NCBI RefSeq assembly: GCF_056712565.1 | Contig: NZ_CM160072.1 | Direction: 5' to 3' (one strand) | DNA length: 64,000 nt | In this document: one piece after another, positions 2,431 to 33,419 of the stretch | Position numbering within the stretch: position 1 is the first letter of the stretch | Layout of the letters: each line of letters starts with the position of its first letter | Notes under the pieces: generated by a model | Seen by the model: the letters and a program-made list of their open reading frames with translations, nothing else | What the model was told of the DNA's origin: nothing | Databases searched by the model: none | Made by a program: the position numbers and the translations under genes

Positions 2431-3388
2431 AGCACTACTGAACGCGGGACGTCAGACGTTAATGCTGGAGTTGCAGGAAGCAAGCCATTTACCGGAACGT
2501 CTGGGCGATGATTTCGTTCGCGCCGCCAATATCATCCTGCACTGCGAAGGCAAAGTGGTGGTTTCGGGAATTGGCAAATCGGGCCACATTGGTAAGAAAA
2601 TCGCCGCAACGCTTGCCAGCACCGGCACACCGGCTTTTTTTGTCCATCCGGCAGAAGCACTGCACGGCGATCTGGGGATGATTGAAAGCCGCGATGTGAT
2701 GCTGTTTATCTCTTATTCCGGTGGCGCGAAGGAACTGGATCTCATTATTCCGCGTCTGGAAGACAAATCTATCGCGCTGCTGGCAATGACCGGAAAACCG
2801 ACGTCACCGCTGGGCCTGGCGGCGAAAGCGGTGCTGGATATCTCCGTAGAGCGCGAAGCCTGCCCGATGCACCTTGCGCCGACCTCCAGCACCGTGAATA
2901 CCCTGATGATGGGCGACGCGCTGGCGATGGCGGTCATGCAGGCGCGCGGATTTAATGAAGAAGATTTTGCCCGCTCCCACCCAGCCGGGGCACTGGGCGC
3001 TCGCTTGCTGAACAAAGTGCATCATCTTATGCGTCGTGACGATGCCATCCCGCAGGTGGCGTTAACCGCCAGCGTGATGGACGCAATGCTGGAACTTAGC
3101 CGCACCGGTTTAGGTCTGGTGGCAGTGTGCGATGATCAACGACTGGTGAAAGGCGTCTTTACCGACGGTGATTTACGTCGCTGGCTGGTTGGCGGCGGCG
3201 CACTCACCACGCCAGTCAATGAAGCGATGACGGTCGGCGGCACCACGTTGCAATCGCAAAGCCGTGCCATCGACGCCAAAGAAATCCTGATGAAACGCAA
3301 AATCACCGCCGCACCGGTAGTGGATGAAAACGGCAAACTCACCGGCGCAATTAACCTGCAGGATTTCTATCAGGCCGGGATTATTTAA
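2423..3388 (+). CDS. gutQ: D-arabinose 5-phosphate isomerase (SIS domain plus CBS pair)
   Basis: 321-aa ORF overlapping the srlR stop by 8 nt; SIS-domain motif ([14 protein letters not shown]) and C-terminal CBS region; matches recalled GutQ. Confidence 0.92.
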
Positions 3389-4899
3389 TCCTTCAGCCCC
3401 AGACGTTTCGCCAGCCGATGCAGGTTGGCGACGTCGGTTTCCAGCATCCGCGCACAGGCGGCCCAGTTGTGATGATTTTGCGCCAGTGCCTGACGAATGG
3501 TTTCACGCTGGAACGCTTCTGTCGCTTCACGCAGGTTTTGCTTAACAACGGGCACCGCCGCCGCTTCTGGCGGCGGCAACGTCACCTCAGGAAAAGCAAA
3601 ATGTTGCGCCTCAAGAATCACTTCATCGCCGCTGCGGGTGGCTCTCGACAATACTACCGCCCGATGAATAGCATGTTCCAGTTCGCGCACGTTTCCCGGA
3701 AAATTGTAGTGTTGCAGTAAATTTCGCGCTCCGGCACTTAATACCACGCGGGAGAGCCCCAGCCGCAAACGACACTGCTCGCAGAAATACCCCGCCAGCA
3801 GAATGACATCATCGCCCCGCTCACGCAGCGGCGGCACTGAAAGTGGAAACACGCTCAGGCGGTGGAACAAGTCAGCGCGAAATCGCCCTGCCAGTACCTC
3901 TTCGCGTAAGTCACGGTTAGTCGCCGCCAGCACGCGCACATCGACCCGCAAACTGCGGTCATCGCCAACGCGTTGAATATCGCCATACTGCAACACCCTC
4001 AGCAGCTTGGCCTGCAATGCCAACGACAACTCGCCGATCTCATCGAGAAACAGCGTGCCGTTATCCGCCATTTCAAACTTCCCGCTGCGGTTACTGATAG
4101 CACCAGTAAACGCCCCTTTCACATGCCCGAACAACTCACTTTCCGCCACACTTTCCGGCAGTGCGGCACAGTTGAGATAGACCAGCGGATTCACCGCCCG
4201 TGGCGAGGCTTCATGAATCGCTTTCGCCACCAGCTCCTTACCGGTTCCCGTCTCACCGCTAATTAAAACGTTGAGATCGGATGCCGCCACAATCTCAATC
4301 TCTTTTTTCAATTGCGTCATGCCAGGGGACAAACCAATCATCTGCGTCTGTTTCACCGCTTCAAACGGCGCGGCATCGCCTGGCAGCATATTCTGGCTTT
4401 CCAGTTGTTCAATCAGCAATGCATTGCTTAACGCTCCCGCCGCCAGTGCGGCAATCAGCCGTAGCTCTTCGTCGCTGAAAACATCGAACTGATCGGGCTG
4501 CATCCCGTCGAGCGTCAAGGCACCGATCAGGTTTTGCCCGGCAAACAACGGCAAACCAACGCAGGCGTGAACCTTCAGACTCTCCTGCCCTGGAATCAAA
4601 CCGTCATAAGGATCGGGCAATTCGCTGTCTGCGGGAAAGCGCACCACATCACCCGCGCGGGCAATCGCTTCCAGCCGTGGATGACCTTCCAGCGCAAAGC
4701 GTCTACCGAGTACATCCTTCGCCAGCCCGTCGATGGCAAGCGGAATAAACTGCCGCGAGTCGTAACGTAGCAACGCAGACGCATCGCACTCCAGCACCTG
4801 ACGCAGCGTGGTGATCAGGCGCTGAAAACGATCCTGATGACCAATCCCACGCTGCAATTCGATGGCGATATTCGCCAGCACATCAACGGAAAAACTCAT
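3385..4899 (-). CDS. norR: Sigma54-dependent nitric-oxide-responsive transcriptional activator (GAF-AAA+-HTH)
   Basis: 504-aa ORF with sigma54-interaction AAA+ motifs ([14 protein letters not shown]) and C-terminal HTH; divergent from norVW. Confidence 0.93.
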
Positions 4900-4911
4900 C
4901 TTTGCCTCACT

Positions 4912-4967
4912 GTCAATTTGACTATAGATATTGTCATATCGACCATTTTATTGATAGTCATTTTGAC
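4912..4967. promoter_or_regulatory. Three NorR enhancer sites (GT-N7-AC) in the norR-norV intergenic region
   Basis: GTCAATTTGAC (4912-4922), GTCATATCGAC (4933-4943), GTCATTTTGAC (4957-4967): three inverted-repeat GT-N7-AC motifs, the established NorR binding architecture. Confidence 0.85.
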
Positions 4968-5022
4968 TACTCATTAATGAGCACAATTTTATTTATAGAG
5001 TAAAAACAATTAGATAAAAAAC

Positions 5023-5038
5023 TGGCACGCAATCTGCA
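5023..5038 (+). promoter_or_regulatory. Sigma54 (-24/-12) promoter of norVW
   Basis: TGGCACGCAATCTGCA: GG and GC elements at canonical spacing, ~48 nt upstream of the norV ATG and downstream of the NorR sites. Confidence 0.85.
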
Positions 5039-5085
5039 ATTAGCAAGACATCTTTTTAGAACACGCTGAATAAATTGAGGTTGCT

Positions 5086-6525
5086 ATGTCTATTGTGGTG
5101 AAAAATAACATTCATTGGGTTGGTCAACGTGACTGGGAAGTGCGTGATTTTCACGGTACAGAATATAAAACGCTGCGCGGCAGCAGCTACAACAGCTACC
5201 TCATCCGCGAAGAAAAAAACGTGCTGATCGACACCGTCGACCATAAATTCAGCCGCGAATTTGTGCAGAACCTGCGTAATGAAATCGATCTGGCGGATAT
5301 CGATTACATCGTAATTAACCATGCTGAAGAGGACCACGCCGGGGCGCTGACCGAACTGATGGCACAAATTCCCGATACGCCGATCTACTGTACTGCCAAC
5401 GCTATCGACTCGATAAATGGTCATCACCATCATCCGGAGTGGAATTTTAATGTAGTGAAAACTGGCGACACGCTGGATATCGGCAACGGCAAACAACTCA
5501 TTTTTGTCGAAACGCCAATGCTGCACTGGCCGGACAGCATGATGACTTACCTGACAGGCGACGCGGTGCTGTTCAGTAACGATGCTTTCGGTCAGCACTA
5601 CTGCGACGAGCATCTGTTCAACGATGAAGTGGATCAGACTGAGCTTTTCGAGCAGTGCCAGCGTTACTACGCCAATATCCTGACGCCGTTCAGCCGCCTG
5701 GTAACGCCGAAAATTACCGAGATCCTGGGCTTTAACTTGCCAGTCGATATGATAGCGACCTCTCACGGCGTGGTATGGCGCGATAACCCGACGCAAATTG
5801 TCGAGCTGTACCTGAAATGGGCGGCGGATTATCAGGAAGACAGAATCACCATTGTCTACGACACCATGTCGAATAACACCCGCATGATGGCTGACGCTAT
5901 CGCCCAGGGGATTGCGGAAACCGACCCACGCGTGGCGGTGAAAATTTTCAACGTCGCCCGAAGCGATAAAAACGAAATCCTGACCAATGTCTTCCGCTCA
6001 AAAGGCGTACTGGTCGGCACTTCTACGATGAATAATGTGATGATGCCGAAAATCGCCGGGCTGGTGGAGGAGATGACCGGATTACGCTTCCGTAACAAAC
6101 GCGCCAGCGCTTTCGGCTCTCACGGCTGGAGCGGCGGTGCGGTGGATCGTCTTTCCACGCGCCTGCAGGATGCGGGTTTCGAAATGTCGCTTAGCCTGAA
6201 AGCCAAATGGCGACCAGACCAGGACGCTCTGGAGTTATGTCGTGAACACGGTCGCGAAATCGCCCGTCAGTGGGCGCTCGCGCCGCTGCCACAGAGCACG
6301 GTGAATACGGTGGTTGAAGAAGAAACCTCTGCCGCCACGACGGCTGACCTCGGCCCACGGATGCAATGCAGCGTCTGCCAGTGGATTTACGATCCGGCAA
6401 AAGGCGAGCCAATGCAGGACGTTGCGCCAGGAACGCCGTGGAGTGAAGTCCCGGATAACTTCCTGTGCCCGGAATGCTCTCTCGGCAAAGACGTCTTTGA
6501 CGAACTGGCATCGGAGGCAAAATGA
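5086..6525 (+). CDS. norV: Anaerobic nitric oxide reductase flavorubredoxin
   Basis: 479-aa ORF with metallo-beta-lactamase-like di-iron domain, flavodoxin domain and C-terminal rubredoxin Cys pairs (CSVC...CPEC); matches recalled NorV. Confidence 0.94.
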
Positions 6526-7655
6526 GCAACGGCATTGTGATCATTGGTTCGGGCTTCGCCGCCCGCCAACTGGTGAAAAATATTCGCAAACAGGACGCCA
6601 GTATTCCATTAACCCTGATTGCCGCCGACAGCATGGATGAGTACAACAAACCTGACCTCAGCCATGTTATCAGTCAGGGGCAACGTGCCGACGACCTTAC
6701 CCGCCAGACGGCAGGTGAATTTGCCGAGCAGTTTAATCTGCGCCTGTTTCCGCACACCTGGGTAACGGATATCGATGCCGAAGCCCATGTGGTGAAAAGT
6801 CAGAATAATCAGTGGCAATACGACAAGTTAGTGCTGGCAACCGGTGCCAGCGCCTTTGTCCCGCCAGTGCCCGGGCGTGAGTTAATGCTGACGTTAAATA
6901 GTCAGCAAGAGTATCGCGCCTGTGAAACGCAACTGCGGGATGCCCGACGCGTGTTGATTGTCGGCGGTGGTTTGATTGGTAGTGAACTGGCGATGGATTT
7001 TTGTCGGGCAGGCAAAGCGGTCACGCTAATCGACAACGCTGCCAGTATTCTGGCGTCGTTAATGCCACCGGAAGTCAGCAGCCGCTTGCAGCATCGGTTG
7101 ACGGAGATGGGCGTTCATCTGCTGTTGAAATCTCAGTTGCAGGGACTAGAAAAAACAGATTCTGGCATTCTGGCAACGCTGGACCGCCAGCGCTGCATCG
7201 AAGTGGATGCGGTAATTGCCGCCACCGGACTGCGCCCGGAAACCGCCCTGGCACGACGCGCCGGGCTGACGATTAATCGCGGCGTTTGCGTCGATAGTTA
7301 TCTGCAAACCAGTAATGCCGATATTTATGCGCTGGGCGATTGCGCGGAAATTAACGGTCAGGTATTGCCGTTCCTCCAGCCGATTCAACTTAGCGCGATG
7401 GTGCTGGCAAAAAATCTTCTCGGCAATAACACGCCGCTGAAACTCCCGGCGATGCTGGTGAAAATCAAAACGCCGGAATTACCGCTGCATCTGGCAGGCG
7501 AAACCCAGCGTCAGGATTTACGCTGGCAAATTAATACCGAACGCCAGGGAATGGTGGCGCGCGGCGTTGACGATGCTGACCAGCTTCGCGCCTTTGTGGT
7601 CAGTGAGGATCGGATGAAAGAGGCATTTGGATTGTTGAAAACGTTGTCGATGTAG
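6522..7655 (+). CDS. norW: NADH:flavorubredoxin reductase
   Basis: 377-aa ORF overlapping the norV stop by 4 nt; FAD/NAD-binding GxGxxG motifs ([16 protein letters not shown]). Confidence 0.93.
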
Positions 7656-23149: not shown

Positions 23150-23273
23150 CAGGCATTCCTCAGGTGATTGTCATTTTTGACGAAAACATGCCGATGAAAT
23201 GTCATTTTCGACACTCATCGACACGCCCATCCCCAAACAGGCGTAACGCCTGCAAAACGGGCAAAGCCTCAGC

Positions 23274-27564: not shown

Positions 27565-27637
27565 TAAAATTCTAAATCTCCTATAGTTAGTCAATGACCT
27601 TTTGCACCGCTTTGCGGTGCTTTCCTGGAAGAACAAA

Positions 27638-29716
27638 ATGTCATATACACCGATGAGTGATCTCGGACAGCAAGGGTTGTTCGACATCACTCGGACACTA
27701 TTGCAGCAGCCCGATCTGGCCTCGCTGTGTGAGGCTCTTTCGCAACTGGTAAAGCGTTCTGCGCTCGCCGACAACGCGGCGATTGTGTTGTGGCAAGCGC
27801 AGACTCAACGTGCGTCTTATTACGCATCGCGTGAAAAAGACACCCCCATTAAATATGAAGACGAAACTGTTCTGGCACACGGTCCGGTACGCAGCATTTT
27901 GTCGCGCCCTGATACGCTGCATTGCAGTTACGAAGAATTTTGTGAAACCTGGCCGCAGCTGGCCACAGGTGGGCTATACCCCAAATTTGGTCACTATTGC
28001 CTGATGCCACTGGCGGCGGAAGGGCATATTTTTGGTGGCTGTGAATTTATTCGTTATGACGATCGCCCCTGGAGCGAAAAAGAGTTCAATCGTCTGCAAA
28101 CATTTACGCAGATCGTTTCTGTCGTCACCGAACAAATCCAGAGCCGCGTCGTTAACAATGTCGACTATGAGTTGTTATGCCGGGAACGCGATAACTTCCG
28201 CATCCTGGTCGCCATCACTAACGCGGTGCTTTCCCGCCTGGATATGGACGAACTGGTCAGCGAAGTCGCCAAAGAAATCCATTACTATTTCGACATTGAC
28301 GATATCAGCATCGTCTTACGCAGCCACCGTAAAAACAAACTCAACATCTACTCCACTCACTATCTTGATAAACAGCATCCCGCTCACGAACAGAGCGAAG
28401 TCGATGAAGCCGGACCCCTCACCGAACGCGTCTTCAAAAGTAAAGAGATGCTGTTGATTAATCTCCACGAGCGGGACGATTTAGCCCCCTATGAACGCAT
28501 GTTGTTCAACACCTGGGGCAACCAGATTCAAACCTTGTGCCTGTTACCGCTGATGTCTGGCGACACTATGCTGGGCGTGCTGAAACTGGCGCAATGCGAA
28601 GAGAAAGTCTTTACCACTACCAATCTGAATTTACTGCGCCAGATTGCCGAACGTGTGGCAATCGCTGTCGATAACGCCCTCGCCTATCAGGAAATTCATC
28701 GTCTGAAAGAACGGCTGGTTGATGAAAACCTCGCCCTGACCGAGCAGCTCAACAATGTTGATAGTGAATTTGGCGAGATTATTGGCCGCAGCGAAGCCAT
28801 GTACAGCGTACTTAAACAAGTGGAAATGGTGGCGCAAAGTGACAGTACCGTTCTGATCCTCGGTGAAACTGGTACAGGTAAAGAGCTGATTGCCCGCGCG
28901 ATCCATAATCTCAGTGGGCGTAATAATCGCCGCATGGTCAAAATGAACTGCGCGGCGATGCCTGCCGGATTGCTGGAAAGCGATCTATTTGGTCATGAGC
29001 GTGGGGCTTTTACCGGTGCCAGCGCTCAGCGCATTGGTCGTTTTGAACTGGCGGATAAAAGCTCACTATTCCTCGATGAAGTGGGCGATATGCCGCTGGA
29101 GTTACAGCCGAAGTTGCTGCGTGTATTACAGGAACAGGAGTTTGAACGTCTCGGCAGCAACAAAATCATTCAGACGGACGTACGTTTAATTGCCGCGACT
29201 AACCGCGATCTGAAAAAAATGGTCGCCGACCGAGAGTTCCGTAGCGATCTCTATTACCGCCTGAACGTATTCCCGATCCACCTGCCGCCACTACGCGAGC
29301 GTCCGGAAGATATTCCGCTGCTGGCGAAAGCCTTTACCTTCAAAATTGCCCGTCGTCTGGGGCGCAATATCGACAGCATTCCTGCCGAGACGCTGCGCAT
29401 CCTGAGCAACATGGAATGGCCGGGCAACGTGCGTGAGCTGGAAAACGTCATCGAGCGCGCGGTATTGCTAACACGCGGCAACGTGCTGCAGCTGTCATTG
29501 CCAGATATTGCTTTACCAGAACCTGAAACGCCGCCTGCCGCAACGGTTGTCGCCCAGGAGGGCGAAGATGAATATCAGTTGATTGTTCGCGTGCTGAAAG
29601 AAACAAACGGCGTGGTTGCCGGGCCTAAAGGCGCTGCGCAACTTCTGGGGCTGAAACGCACGACTCTGCTGTCACGAATGAAGCGACTGGGAATTGATAA
29701 ATCGGCATTGATTTAA
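27638..29716 (+). CDS. fhlA: Formate hydrogenlyase transcriptional activator (sigma54-dependent, GAF-AAA+-HTH)
   Basis: Start at MSYTPMSDLGQQ (692 aa) rather than the ORF-track 704 aa; AAA+ sigma54-interaction motifs ([14 protein letters not shown]). Confidence 0.92.
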   Translation: MSYTPMSDLGQQGLFDITRTLLQQPDLASLCEALSQLVKRSALADNAAIVLWQAQTQRASYYASREKDTPIKYEDETVLAHGPVRSILSRPDTLHCSYEEFCETWPQLATGGLYPKFGHYCLMPLAAEGHIFGGCEFIRYDDRPWSEKEFNRLQTFTQIVSVVTEQIQSRVVNNVDYELLCRERDNFRILVAITNAVLSRLDMDELVSEVAKEIHYYFDIDDISIVLRSHRKNKLNIYSTHYLDKQHPAHEQSEVDEAGPLTERVFKSKEMLLINLHERDDLAPYERMLFNTWGNQIQTLCLLPLMSGDTMLGVLKLAQCEEKVFTTTNLNLLRQIAERVAIAVDNALAYQEIHRLKERLVDENLALTEQLNNVDSEFGEIIGRSEAMYSVLKQVEMVAQSDSTVLILGETGTGKELIARAIHNLSGRNNRRMVKMNCAAMPAGLLESDLFGHERGAFTGASAQRIGRFELADKSSLFLDEVGDMPLELQPKLLRVLQEQEFERLGSNKIIQTDVRLIAATNRDLKKMVADREFRSDLYYRLNVFPIHLPPLRERPEDIPLLAKAFTFKIARRLGRNIDSIPAETLRILSNMEWPGNVRELENVIERAVLLTRGNVLQLSLPDIALPEPETPPAATVVAQEGEDEYQLIVRVLKETNGVVAGPKGAAQLLGLKRTTLLSRMKRLGIDKSALI

Positions 29717-29760
29717 CAGATGTGGTTATACTCGATCAACATTCAATGAAAGGAGGCAGT

Positions 29761-30189
29761 ATGGCAGTTTCAGCAAGAAATCAATTAACCGGAACAGTTA
29801 GCGCAGTAGCAATGGGCGCGGTGAATGATGAAGTAGAACTGACGCTGGCAGGTGGTGCAAAGCTGGTGGCAATTGTGACTCACAGCAGCCAGCAAGCGCT
29901 GGGTCTGGCGAAAGGGAAAGAAGCGATTGCCCTGATTAAAGCCCCGTGGGTCACGCTGGCAACGGAAGACTGTGGACTGAAATTCTCTGCTCGCAACCAG
30001 TTTGCTGGCAGCGTGTCGACAATCACCGAAGGCGCAGTGAACGCCACTGTCCATATCAAAACGGATGCGGGTTTTGAAATTGTGGCAGTGGTAACAAATG
30101 AAAGTCAGGATGAAATGAAACTCACCACTGGCTCGCGCGTTATTGCATTGATCAAAGCATCAGCCATCCTGATTGCCACCAAAGCGTAA
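29761..30189 (+). CDS. Two-domain Mop/TOBE molbindin-like protein (putative molybdate/tungstate-binding)
   Basis: Start at MAVSARNQLTG, 8 nt downstream of an AAGGAGG Shine-Dalgarno; two tandem ~70-aa repeats each beginning SARNQ(L/F)(T/A)G(T/S)V, characteristic of TOBE/Mop domains. Not recalled between fhlA and ygbA in K-12. Confidence 0.7.
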   Translation: MAVSARNQLTGTVSAVAMGAVNDEVELTLAGGAKLVAIVTHSSQQALGLAKGKEAIALIKAPWVTLATEDCGLKFSARNQFAGSVSTITEGAVNATVHIKTDAGFEIVAVVTNESQDEMKLTTGSRVIALIKASAILIATKA

Positions 30190-30227
30190 GCGCCGTATTT
30201 GCCGGAGAGTATGGCTCTCCGGCAGAT

Positions 30228-30572
30228 TTATTTCTTTGGACGATATTTTTCTGGCAACTCCGGCACCGGACGCTTGTCATCGATGAGATGACGCACGGTT
30301 AAGATCGGATGACGCCACAGCATTCTCGGCCCAACCCAACGCATAATCTGTTTCATCTCTTCACGCTTTGCAGGCTGGTAACAGTGCACCGGACACTGCT
30401 TACAGGCTGGTTTCTCTTCGCCGAACACACATTTATCCAGCCGCTTTTGCGCGTAAGCAAACAACGCCTCGTAATGCTCCGGCTCTGCTGACGCCTGCGG
30501 GCATTTCGCTTGATAAAGATCGATCATTTTTTTAATCGTCAGTTTTTCACGAGAGATACGCTTGCCGGACAT
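30228..30572 (-). CDS. ygbA: Nitrosative-stress-induced Cys-rich protein YgbA
   Basis: 114-aa ORF with CxxC-rich core (CKQCPVHC) matching recalled YgbA. Confidence 0.85.
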   Translation of the reverse strand: MSGKRISREKLTIKKMIDLYQAKCPQASAEPEHYEALFAYAQKRLDKCVFGEEKPACKQCPVHCYQPAKREEMKQIMRWVGPRMLWRHPILTVRHLIDDKRPVPELPEKYRPKK

Positions 30573-30588
30573 GCTGCCTCCATACTCT

Positions 30589-30612
30589 TAAGGTGCATTT
30601 ATATTACAACTT
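30589..30612 (-). promoter_or_regulatory. Candidate NsrR operator overlapping the ygbA promoter
   Basis: AAGGTGCATTTATATTACAACTT: AT-rich imperfect inverted repeat resembling the NsrR consensus (AAnATGCATTT-n-AAATGCATnTT), ~20-40 nt upstream of the ygbA ATG. Confidence 0.5.
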
Positions 30613-30857
30613 AATTTTAAAGGGGACTATGTCTCTGAAGGAGGAGGTTTCTTCAACCGACGAATTTGGCGATCTTGTTTCATCGTCATCACGCAAAAGC
30701 TGCAAAGCAGCATTTTTCGCGGAACCGACATCAAGAACTCACCTTTCGCGTCTTCCCCTGAAATGATTAACTCCGGTATCATGTGCGCCTTATGTGATTA
30801 CAACGAAAATAAAAACCATCACACTACATTTAACATCAGGGAGCCGGACTTAACCCC

Positions 30858-33419
30858 ATGAGTACAATAGAAAATTTCGACGCCCATACGCCCATGATGC
30901 AGCAGTATCTCAAGCTGAAAGCCCAGCATCCCGAGATCCTGCTGTTTTACCGGATGGGCGACTTTTATGAACTGTTTTATGACGACGCAAAACGGGCATC
31001 GCAACTGCTGGATATTTCACTGACCAAACGCGGTGCTTCAGCGGGAGAGCCAATCCCGATGGCGGGGATTCCCTACCATGCGGTGGAAAACTACCTCGCC
31101 AAACTGGTGAATCAGGGCGAATCCGTCGCTATTTGTGAACAGATTGGCGATCCGGCGACCAGCAAAGGGCCGGTTGAGCGCAAAGTTGTCCGTATCGTTA
31201 CGCCGGGCACCATCAGCGATGAAGCGCTGTTGCAGGAACGTCAGGACAACCTGCTGGCGGCTATCTGGCAGGACAGTAAAGGTTTCGGCTACGCAACGCT
31301 GGATATCAGTTCCGGTCGTTTTCGCCTGAGCGAACCGGCAGACCGCGAAACGATGGCGGCAGAACTGCAACGTACGAATCCAGCGGAATTACTGTATGCG
31401 GAAGATTTCGCCGAGATGTCGCTGATTGAAGGTCGCCGCGGCCTGCGTCGTCGCCCGCTGTGGGAGTTTGAAATCGACACCGCTCGCCAGCAATTGAACC
31501 TGCAATTTGGCACCCGAGATCTGGTCGGTTTTGGTGTGGAGAACGCACCACGCGGACTTTGTGCTGCCGGTTGTCTGTTGCAGTATGCGAAAGATACCCA
31601 ACGCACGACCCTGCCGCATATTCGTTCTATCACTATGGAACGTCAGCAGGACAGCATCATTATGGATGCCGCGACGCGTCGTAACCTGGAAATTACTCAG
31701 AACCTGGCCGGCGGTGCGGAAAATACGCTGGCTTCAGTGCTCGACTGCACTGTAACGCCGATGGGCAGCCGTATGCTGAAACGCTGGCTGCATATGCCAG
31801 TGCGCGATACCCGCGTGTTGCTTGAGCGCCAGCAAACTATTGGCGCATTGCAGGATTTCACCGCTGAGCTACAGCCGGTACTGCGTCAGGTCGGCGACCT
31901 GGAACGTATTCTGGCGCGTCTGGCGTTGCGTACCGCTCGCCCGCGCGATCTGGCCCGTATGCGTCATGCCTTCCAGCAACTGCCGGAGTTGCGTGCGCAG
32001 TTAGAAAATGTCGATAGTGCACCGGTACAAGCGCTGCGTGAGAAGATGGGCGAGTTTGCCGAACTGCGCGACCTGCTGGAGCGAGCAATCATCGACACGC
32101 CGCCGGTGCTGGTACGCGATGGTGGTGTTATTGCGACTGGTTATAACGAAGAACTGGATGAATGGCGTGCGCTGGCCGACGGCGCGACCGATTATCTGGA
32201 ACGTCTGGAAGTCCGCGAGCGTGAACGTACCGGCCTGGACACGTTAAAAGTTGGCTTTAATGCTGTGCACGGCTACTACATTCAAATCAGCCGTGGGCAA
32301 AGCCATCTGGCACCAATCAACTACATGCGCCGCCAGACGCTGAAAAACGCCGAGCGTTACATTATTCCGGAGCTGAAAGAGTACGAAGATAAAGTTCTCA
32401 CCTCAAAAGGCAAAGCGCTGGCACTGGAAAAACAGCTTTATGAAGAGCTGTTCGACCTGTTGCTGCCGCATCTGGAAGCGTTGCAACAGAGCGCGAGCGC
32501 GCTGGCAGAACTTGATGTGCTGGTTAACCTGGCGGAGCGGGCCTATACCCTGAACTACACCTGCCCGACCTTTATTGATAAACCTGGCATTCGTATTACC
32601 GAAGGTCGCCATCCAGTGGTTGAACAGGTACTGAACGAACCGTTTATCGCTAACCCGCTAAACCTGTCGCCACAGCGCCGCATGTTGATCATCACCGGTC
32701 CGAACATGGGGGGTAAAAGTACCTATATGCGCCAGACCGCGTTGATTGCGCTGATGGCGTATATCGGCAGTTACGTCCCGGCGCAAAAGGTCGAGATTGG
32801 GCCGATCGATCGCATCTTTACCCGCGTAGGTGCCGCGGATGATCTGGCTTCCGGACGTTCAACCTTTATGGTGGAGATGACCGAAACCGCTAATATTCTG
32901 CATAACGCCACCGAATACAGTCTGGTGTTGATGGACGAGATTGGGCGCGGAACGTCCACTTACGATGGCCTGTCGCTGGCATGGGCGTGTGCGGAAAATC
33001 TGGCAAATAAGATCAAAGCGTTGACGCTGTTTGCTACCCACTATTTCGAGCTGACCCAGTTACCGGAGAAAATGGAAGGCGTCGCCAACGTGCATCTCGA
33101 TGCACTGGAGCACGGCGACACCATTGCCTTTATGCATAGCGTGCAGGATGGCGCAGCGAGCAAAAGCTACGGCCTGGCGGTTGCAGCTCTGGCGGGTGTG
33201 CCAAAAGAGGTTATTAAGCGCGCACGGCAAAAACTGCGTGAGCTGGAAAGCATTTCGCCGAACGCCGCTGCTACGCAAGTGGATGGTACACAAATGTCTT
33301 TGCTGTCCGTACCGGAAGAAACTTCGCCTGCGGTCGAGGCATTGGAAAACCTCGACCCGGATTCACTGACTCCGCGTCAGGCGCTGGAATGGATTTATCG
33401 CTTGAAGAGTCTGGTGTAA
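30858..33419 (+). CDS. mutS: DNA mismatch repair protein MutS
   Basis: 853-aa ORF; mismatch-binding N-terminus, Walker [11 protein letters not shown]-terminal dimerisation region. Confidence 0.96.

Follow-up and report, generated by a model that had tools for sequence, protein, structure and literature searches.

The window (the whole 64-kb stretch of DNA that was analysed) carries ygbA on the minus strand, between a TOBE/Mop-type reading frame that follows fhlA and the mutS gene on the opposite strand (Table 1). Over the 801 bases around the site described below, the window matches E. coli ATCC 11775, NU14 and other B2/ExPEC genomes at 100% identity, and the identical RefSeq genomes annotate a TOBE-domain protein, ygbA and mutS over these same bases. 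In the segments that were queried, complete E. coli B2 genomes likewise match the window at 100%. Judged by these identities, the window is a piece of E. coli chromosome of the B2/UPEC type. The norRVW genes, which the initial annotation had described as lying next to ygbA, do share the window with it but are not adjacent, being separated from the site by some 23 kb in which hypF, the hyc and hyp operons and fhlA are found. The nsrR gene is absent from the 64-kb window.

Table 1. Genes and regulatory features of the ygbA locus, with the evidence for each (positions are those of the window).
Feature	Position	Strand	Evidence
norR, norV, norW	3385-7655		in the window, ~23 kb from the ygbA site
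fhlA	27602-29716	+	ORF list
TOBE/Mop-type ORF	29722-30189	+	ORF list; probable start 29764
ygbA coding sequence, 114 aa	30228-30572	-	ORF list; Pfam PF11756 YgbA_NO, E = 2e-40; RefSeq annotation
Shine-Dalgarno GGAGG, 4 nt from ATG	30577-30581	-	read from sequence
NsrR operator, 11-1-11 imperfect inverted repeat	30590-30612	-	top weight-matrix match; published CFT073 site; conservation
Predicted transcription start, A at operator position 19	30594	-	-10 geometry only, 7 nt after the -10
Candidate -10 hexamer TAATAT, operator positions 7-12	30601-30606	-	TAnnAT in 80/80 orthologues
Candidate -35 hexamer TAGTCC (weak), 17-bp spacer to the -10	30624-30629	-	G conserved in 93% of orthologues
mutS	30858-33419	+	ORF list

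The gene with a TOBE/Mop-type double domain that lies between fhlA and ygbA (Pfam PF03459, E = 8.5e-35) is missing from K-12, where the fhlA-ygbA gap measures 36 bp, and it represents an insertion/deletion polymorphism of the fhlA-mutS interval between the B2-type window and K-12. Because of this insertion the regions downstream of ygbA are unrelated in the two. The C-terminus of YgbA differs as well (114 aa in the window, 117 aa in K-12), the divergence falling immediately before the stop (30228-30240). On the other side of ygbA, the third of the ygbA-mutS intergenic region that is nearest to mutS (30760-30857) hardly differs between the window and K-12 and presumably carries the mutS promoter and leader, while the middle of the region (around 30613-30700) is much more diverged and includes one indel. 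Upstream of ygbA and on the same strand there is also a 51-aa ORF (30627-30782), the TAG stop of which overlaps the proposed -35 element. Its counterparts in some RefSeq E. coli genomes are annotated as hypothetical proteins (44-59 aa); tblastn recognises it within Escherichia only, and in K-12 there is a 1-nt indel near its end. The ORF is probably not a real gene. At 30699-30711 a short GC-rich hairpin with a T-run after it was flagged on both strands.

The site of interest is a 23-mer just upstream of ygbA, AAGGTGCATTTATATTACAACTT on the plus strand and AAGTTGTAATATAAATGCACCTT in the orientation of ygbA, in which its halves read AAGTTGTAATA-T-AAATGCACCTT. It ends 17 nt before the ygbA ATG and thus spans 18-40 nt upstream. 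The initial annotation had described an imperfect inverted repeat 20-40 nt upstream of ygbA; the site is indeed present, at the slightly different distance given here, but its symmetry is weak. The arms pair at only 7 of 11 positions, a value reached or exceeded by 523 other 23-mers of the window, which puts the symmetry at chance level. A repeat search reported no inverted repeats in 30540-30870, missing the site because it contains no exact 6-bp seed. Similarly, the strict NsrR consensus AAGATGCATTTNAAATGCATCTT gave no match with up to 3 mismatches, since the site departs from it at 5 positions, and a weight matrix was therefore needed. The significance of the site comes from the match to this NsrR matrix, together with cross-species conservation, rather than from symmetry.

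We built the matrix, in palindromised form, from the 15 distinct ChIP-seq-positive sites of 11-1-11 architecture listed by Mehta et al. 2015 (Table 4; PMC5320621); the sites of ygbA and hycB were left out, as they are located in the window itself. With a score of 23.2 bits, the ygbA site ranked first among ~64,000 window positions (runner-up 13.6 bits) and fell inside the range of the training sites (13-32 bits). Such a match is expected by chance ~0.005 times per 64 kb, and 0.5% of 200 first-order Markov simulations of 64 kb reached the same score. The two halves contribute unequally: scored per position, the downstream half-site AAATGCACCTT holds ~15 bits and the upstream one ~7.6 bits, so the latter is a mediocre NsrR match. 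The motif scan that had been suggested as a check on the initial annotation therefore places the site above threshold, as does the published PatSer ln(P) of -16.65 (cut-off -14.28).

Among ten transcription-factor consensus sequences compared with shuffled sequence over 30560-30860, NsrR was the only one to beat the shuffles, none of 300 of which matched its consensus as well. The best matches to FNR, CRP, Fur, IscR (types 1 and 2), NarL, OxyR and MetJ in the same interval were equalled in 16-99.7% of shuffles, and these regulators were set aside since their matches were no better than those of shuffled sequence. An Rfam search of 30100-31000 gave no match at E <= 1, and an RNA element was rejected on this account.

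The second-best matrix match in the window (AACATGCCGATGAAATGTCATTT, 23185-23207, 13.6 bits) is located between hycA and hycB, 36-58 nt upstream of the latter, and is the published CFT073 hycB site. This site is among the strongest CFT073 NsrR ChIP-seq peaks, with 16-fold enrichment (Mehta et al. 2015, PMC5320621), and hycB has been reported to go down ~100-fold under nitrate. The distance between the ygbA and hycB sites is 7405 bp both in CFT073 coordinates and in the window.

The ygbA 23-mer itself has been published. Mehta et al. 2015 (PMC5320621, Table 4) give AAGGTGCATTTATATTACAACTT as a predicted NsrR site for ygbA of CFT073, centred at 3137982, with the PatSer ln(P) of -16.65 cited above (threshold -14.28), and there is no difference between that 23-mer and ours. 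The same authors found no NsrR ChIP-seq peak at this identical ygbA sequence, which they regarded as a probable false negative, and noted that CFT073 NsrR is identical to K-12 NsrR. A positive K-12 ChIP-chip result at ygbA has been reported, in the form of a secondary citation. Induction of ygbA in CFT073 has been reported too. Bodenmiller and Spiro (2006) are reportedly the origin of the statement, for which others cite them, that NsrR regulates ygbA in E. coli. For this species, then, both the regulation of ygbA and the binding of NsrR are taken from secondary citation. Membership of ygbA in a nitrosative-stress regulon, as the initial annotation had it, agrees with the literature, in which NsrR repression of the gene is reported and its mRNA rises 31.8-fold in a Salmonella nsrR mutant; ygbA had already been named as NsrR-repressed, from a personal communication, by Rodionov et al. 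2005. The motif given in that study, gATGyAT-N5-ATrCATc, describes the same NsrR motif in a shorter form of 19 bp, and the core of the ygbA site fits it with 3 mismatches.

Compared with canonical NsrR targets, the ygbA site shares with the ytfE, hcp and hmp operators the 11-1-11 architecture, the consensus AAGATGCATTT-N-AAATGCATCTT and a promoter-proximal location, and its score lies within the ChIP-positive range. Unlike them, it has A instead of T at positions 9 and 11 of the upstream half-site. The K-12 allele of the site (AAGATGTAATATAAATACATCTT) has other bases than the window at positions 4, 17 and 20 and a higher arm symmetry (9/11 as against 7/11), but the two score nearly the same on the matrix (22.1 bits for K-12, 22.3 bits for the window). 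The 68-bp region that contains the site was found in 5417 of 5426 complete E. coli genomes, in a few allele classes, and among the sampled E. coli alleles variation within the 23-mer was limited to the low-information positions 4, 16, 17 and 20.

To look beyond E. coli, a collection of species-representative genomes was scanned for YgbA, yielding 80 loci, all from the Enterobacterales and spanning Escherichia, Citrobacter, Salmonella, Klebsiella, Enterobacter, Raoultella, Kluyvera, Lelliottia, Leclercia, Pluralibacter, Phytobacter, Hafnia and Rahnella. At every one of the 80 loci, the best matrix match in the 150 nt upstream of ygbA was also the best of the whole ~3.3-kb locus. The orthologous site scored at least 15 bits in 70 loci, and its distance to the ATG was 12-22 nt in 79 (commonest value 18 nt). 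When the sequences were anchored on the site, mean information content was 1.40 bits per position in the 23-mer and 0.21 and 0.39 in its flanks (60 nt upstream and 20 nt downstream, respectively), i.e. the site forms a sharp conservation island upstream of ygbA. As picking the best match inflates information content by itself, best matches were picked in the same way from shuffled upstream regions and from nine further 150-nt segments of the loci. These controls gave 0.24-0.32 bits and not a single invariant column, whereas the real sites have 9. Outside the -10 hexamer, the best-conserved positions (AA at 1-2, T16, C18, A19 and TT at 22-23) all fit the NsrR motif. The identification of an NsrR operator in the initial annotation is thus borne out by the exact published 23-mer, the first rank with an independently derived matrix and conservation at 80 of 80 loci.

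Part of the conserved pattern points to something other than NsrR. The -10-like TAATAT that had been noticed as overlapping the site lies inside the 23-mer, reading from 30606 to 30601, and gains comparative support from the 80 orthologues, where positions 7-12 read TATTAT in 53, TAAAAT in 8, TAATAT in 7, TAGAAT in 6 and other forms of TAnnAT in the remaining 6. At position 11, 99% of orthologues have A, as against T in 87% of bona fide NsrR sites. Every orthologue (100%) has T at position 12, which in the 11-1-11 motif is the central spacer and carries no information for NsrR. In a -10 hexamer these positions would be A(-8) and T(-7). Being invariant in a manner that the NsrR motif does not explain, they suggest a second constraint, that of the hexamer, and a -10 element embedded in the operator is supported by this pattern. 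The departure of the upstream half-site from the NsrR consensus, and with it the asymmetry of the ygbA operator (~7.6 and 15 bits), would then be due to its doubling as the -10.

The other elements of the putative promoter are less prominent. Over 60 nt upstream of the site, conservation is confined to one base, the G (93%) of an nTG placed exactly 17 bp from the hexamer. At this spacer the mean match to TTGACA is 2.8 of 6, as compared with 0.7-2.1 at eleven other spacings. The parts of the putative sigma-70 promoter are a good -10 (TAATAT) of invariant pattern and a weak -35 (TAGTCC) at a 17-bp spacer, and it is because of the latter that a simple sigma-70 consensus scan of 30500-30900 found no promoter. 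The A at operator position 19, from which transcription is predicted to start, is 95% conserved among orthologues. The implied leader would be ~22 nt long here, including the GGAGG, and 20-25 nt in 75 of the 80 orthologues. Downstream of the site, a G-rich block is conserved as well. Our search of the literature for a mapped ygbA transcription start found none.

NsrR is an Rrf2-family iron-sulfur repressor that is released by nitrosylation of its cluster. In the literature it is described as an Fe-S, NO-sensitive repressor. Taken together, the 23-mer is very probably an NsrR operator superimposed on the sigma-70 core promoter of ygbA, and would act by occlusion. The upstream half-site would hold the -10 hexamer TAATAT, and the stronger downstream half-site would cover the predicted transcription start. 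A bound dimer of holo-NsrR would block RNA polymerase at the -10 and start region, keeping ygbA off; NO would nitrosylate the NsrR cluster and release the repressor, upon which ygbA could be transcribed with its short leader. Promoter occlusion as the mode of ygbA repression is well supported, by reasoning from a transcription start that is itself predicted.

A different way to read the site is as a plain AT-rich -10 and start region with a coincidental likeness to NsrR operators, the NO induction of ygbA being exerted through another regulator. The weak inverted repeat, equalled by so many other 23-mers of the window, and the missing ChIP-seq peak in CFT073 are what such a region would show, and the -10 hexamer does account for part of the conservation. 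Positions 1-2, 16, 18-19 and 22-23, however, are conserved and fit NsrR with no promoter role to account for them. By chance, 64 kb would contain 0.005 matches of 23 bits, ygbA is reported to be derepressed in nsrR mutants, and no other regulator consensus fits, all of which makes coincidence very improbable. Even harder to credit is that a regulator of similar architecture, e.g. the Rrf2 paralogue IscR, or Fur or FNR, is the one that binds here. NsrR and IscR do belong to one family and the region is AT-rich, but with consensus strings, matches to IscR types 1 and 2, Fur and FNR in 30560-30860 were equalled by 16-94% of shuffles, as opposed to 0 of 300 for NsrR.

Granting that NsrR binds, it might do so at a downstream operator, as a roadblock, with the true ygbA promoter further upstream and no occlusion. 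The weak -35, the consensus scan devoid of a promoter and a literature search that turned up no mapped ygbA transcription start leave some room for this arrangement. We consider it quite unlikely, since across genera the nTG located 17 bp from TAnnAT is all that is conserved upstream of the site, among twelve spacings tested the -35 match is best at 17, and the invariant positions 11 and 12 fit the -10 hexamer and not NsrR. Another proposal, also unlikely though somewhat less so, is that the operator has been weakened in the B2 lineage, so that NsrR occupancy at ygbA is low in B2 strains. The negative ChIP-seq in CFT073 as against the reported positive ChIP-chip in K-12, the three substitutions between alleles (positions 4, 17 and 20) and the lower arm symmetry of the B2 allele (7/11, with 9/11 in K-12) speak for it; the equal matrix scores (22.3 and 22.1 bits) and the induction of ygbA still reported in CFT073 speak against it. 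On similarly slender odds, the ygbA operator might consist of one strong half-site and a degenerate one locked as the -10, with the B2 allele less occupied by NsrR. If true, lower occupancy in B2 would explain the missing CFT073 peak and would amount to a strain-specific tuning of ygbA de-repression.

The operator superimposed on the ygbA promoter, our preferred reading, concerns a gene that has been an accepted member of the NsrR regulon since 2005-2006, and with the exact 23-mer published for CFT073 in 2015 the finding was already known. It illustrates that a reading of raw sequence can recover a genuine regulatory site, while adding no new biology. The small addition made here is comparative: the operator and the putative -10 hexamer are superimposed across 80 species of Enterobacterales, which supports occlusion as the mechanism by which NsrR would repress ygbA.
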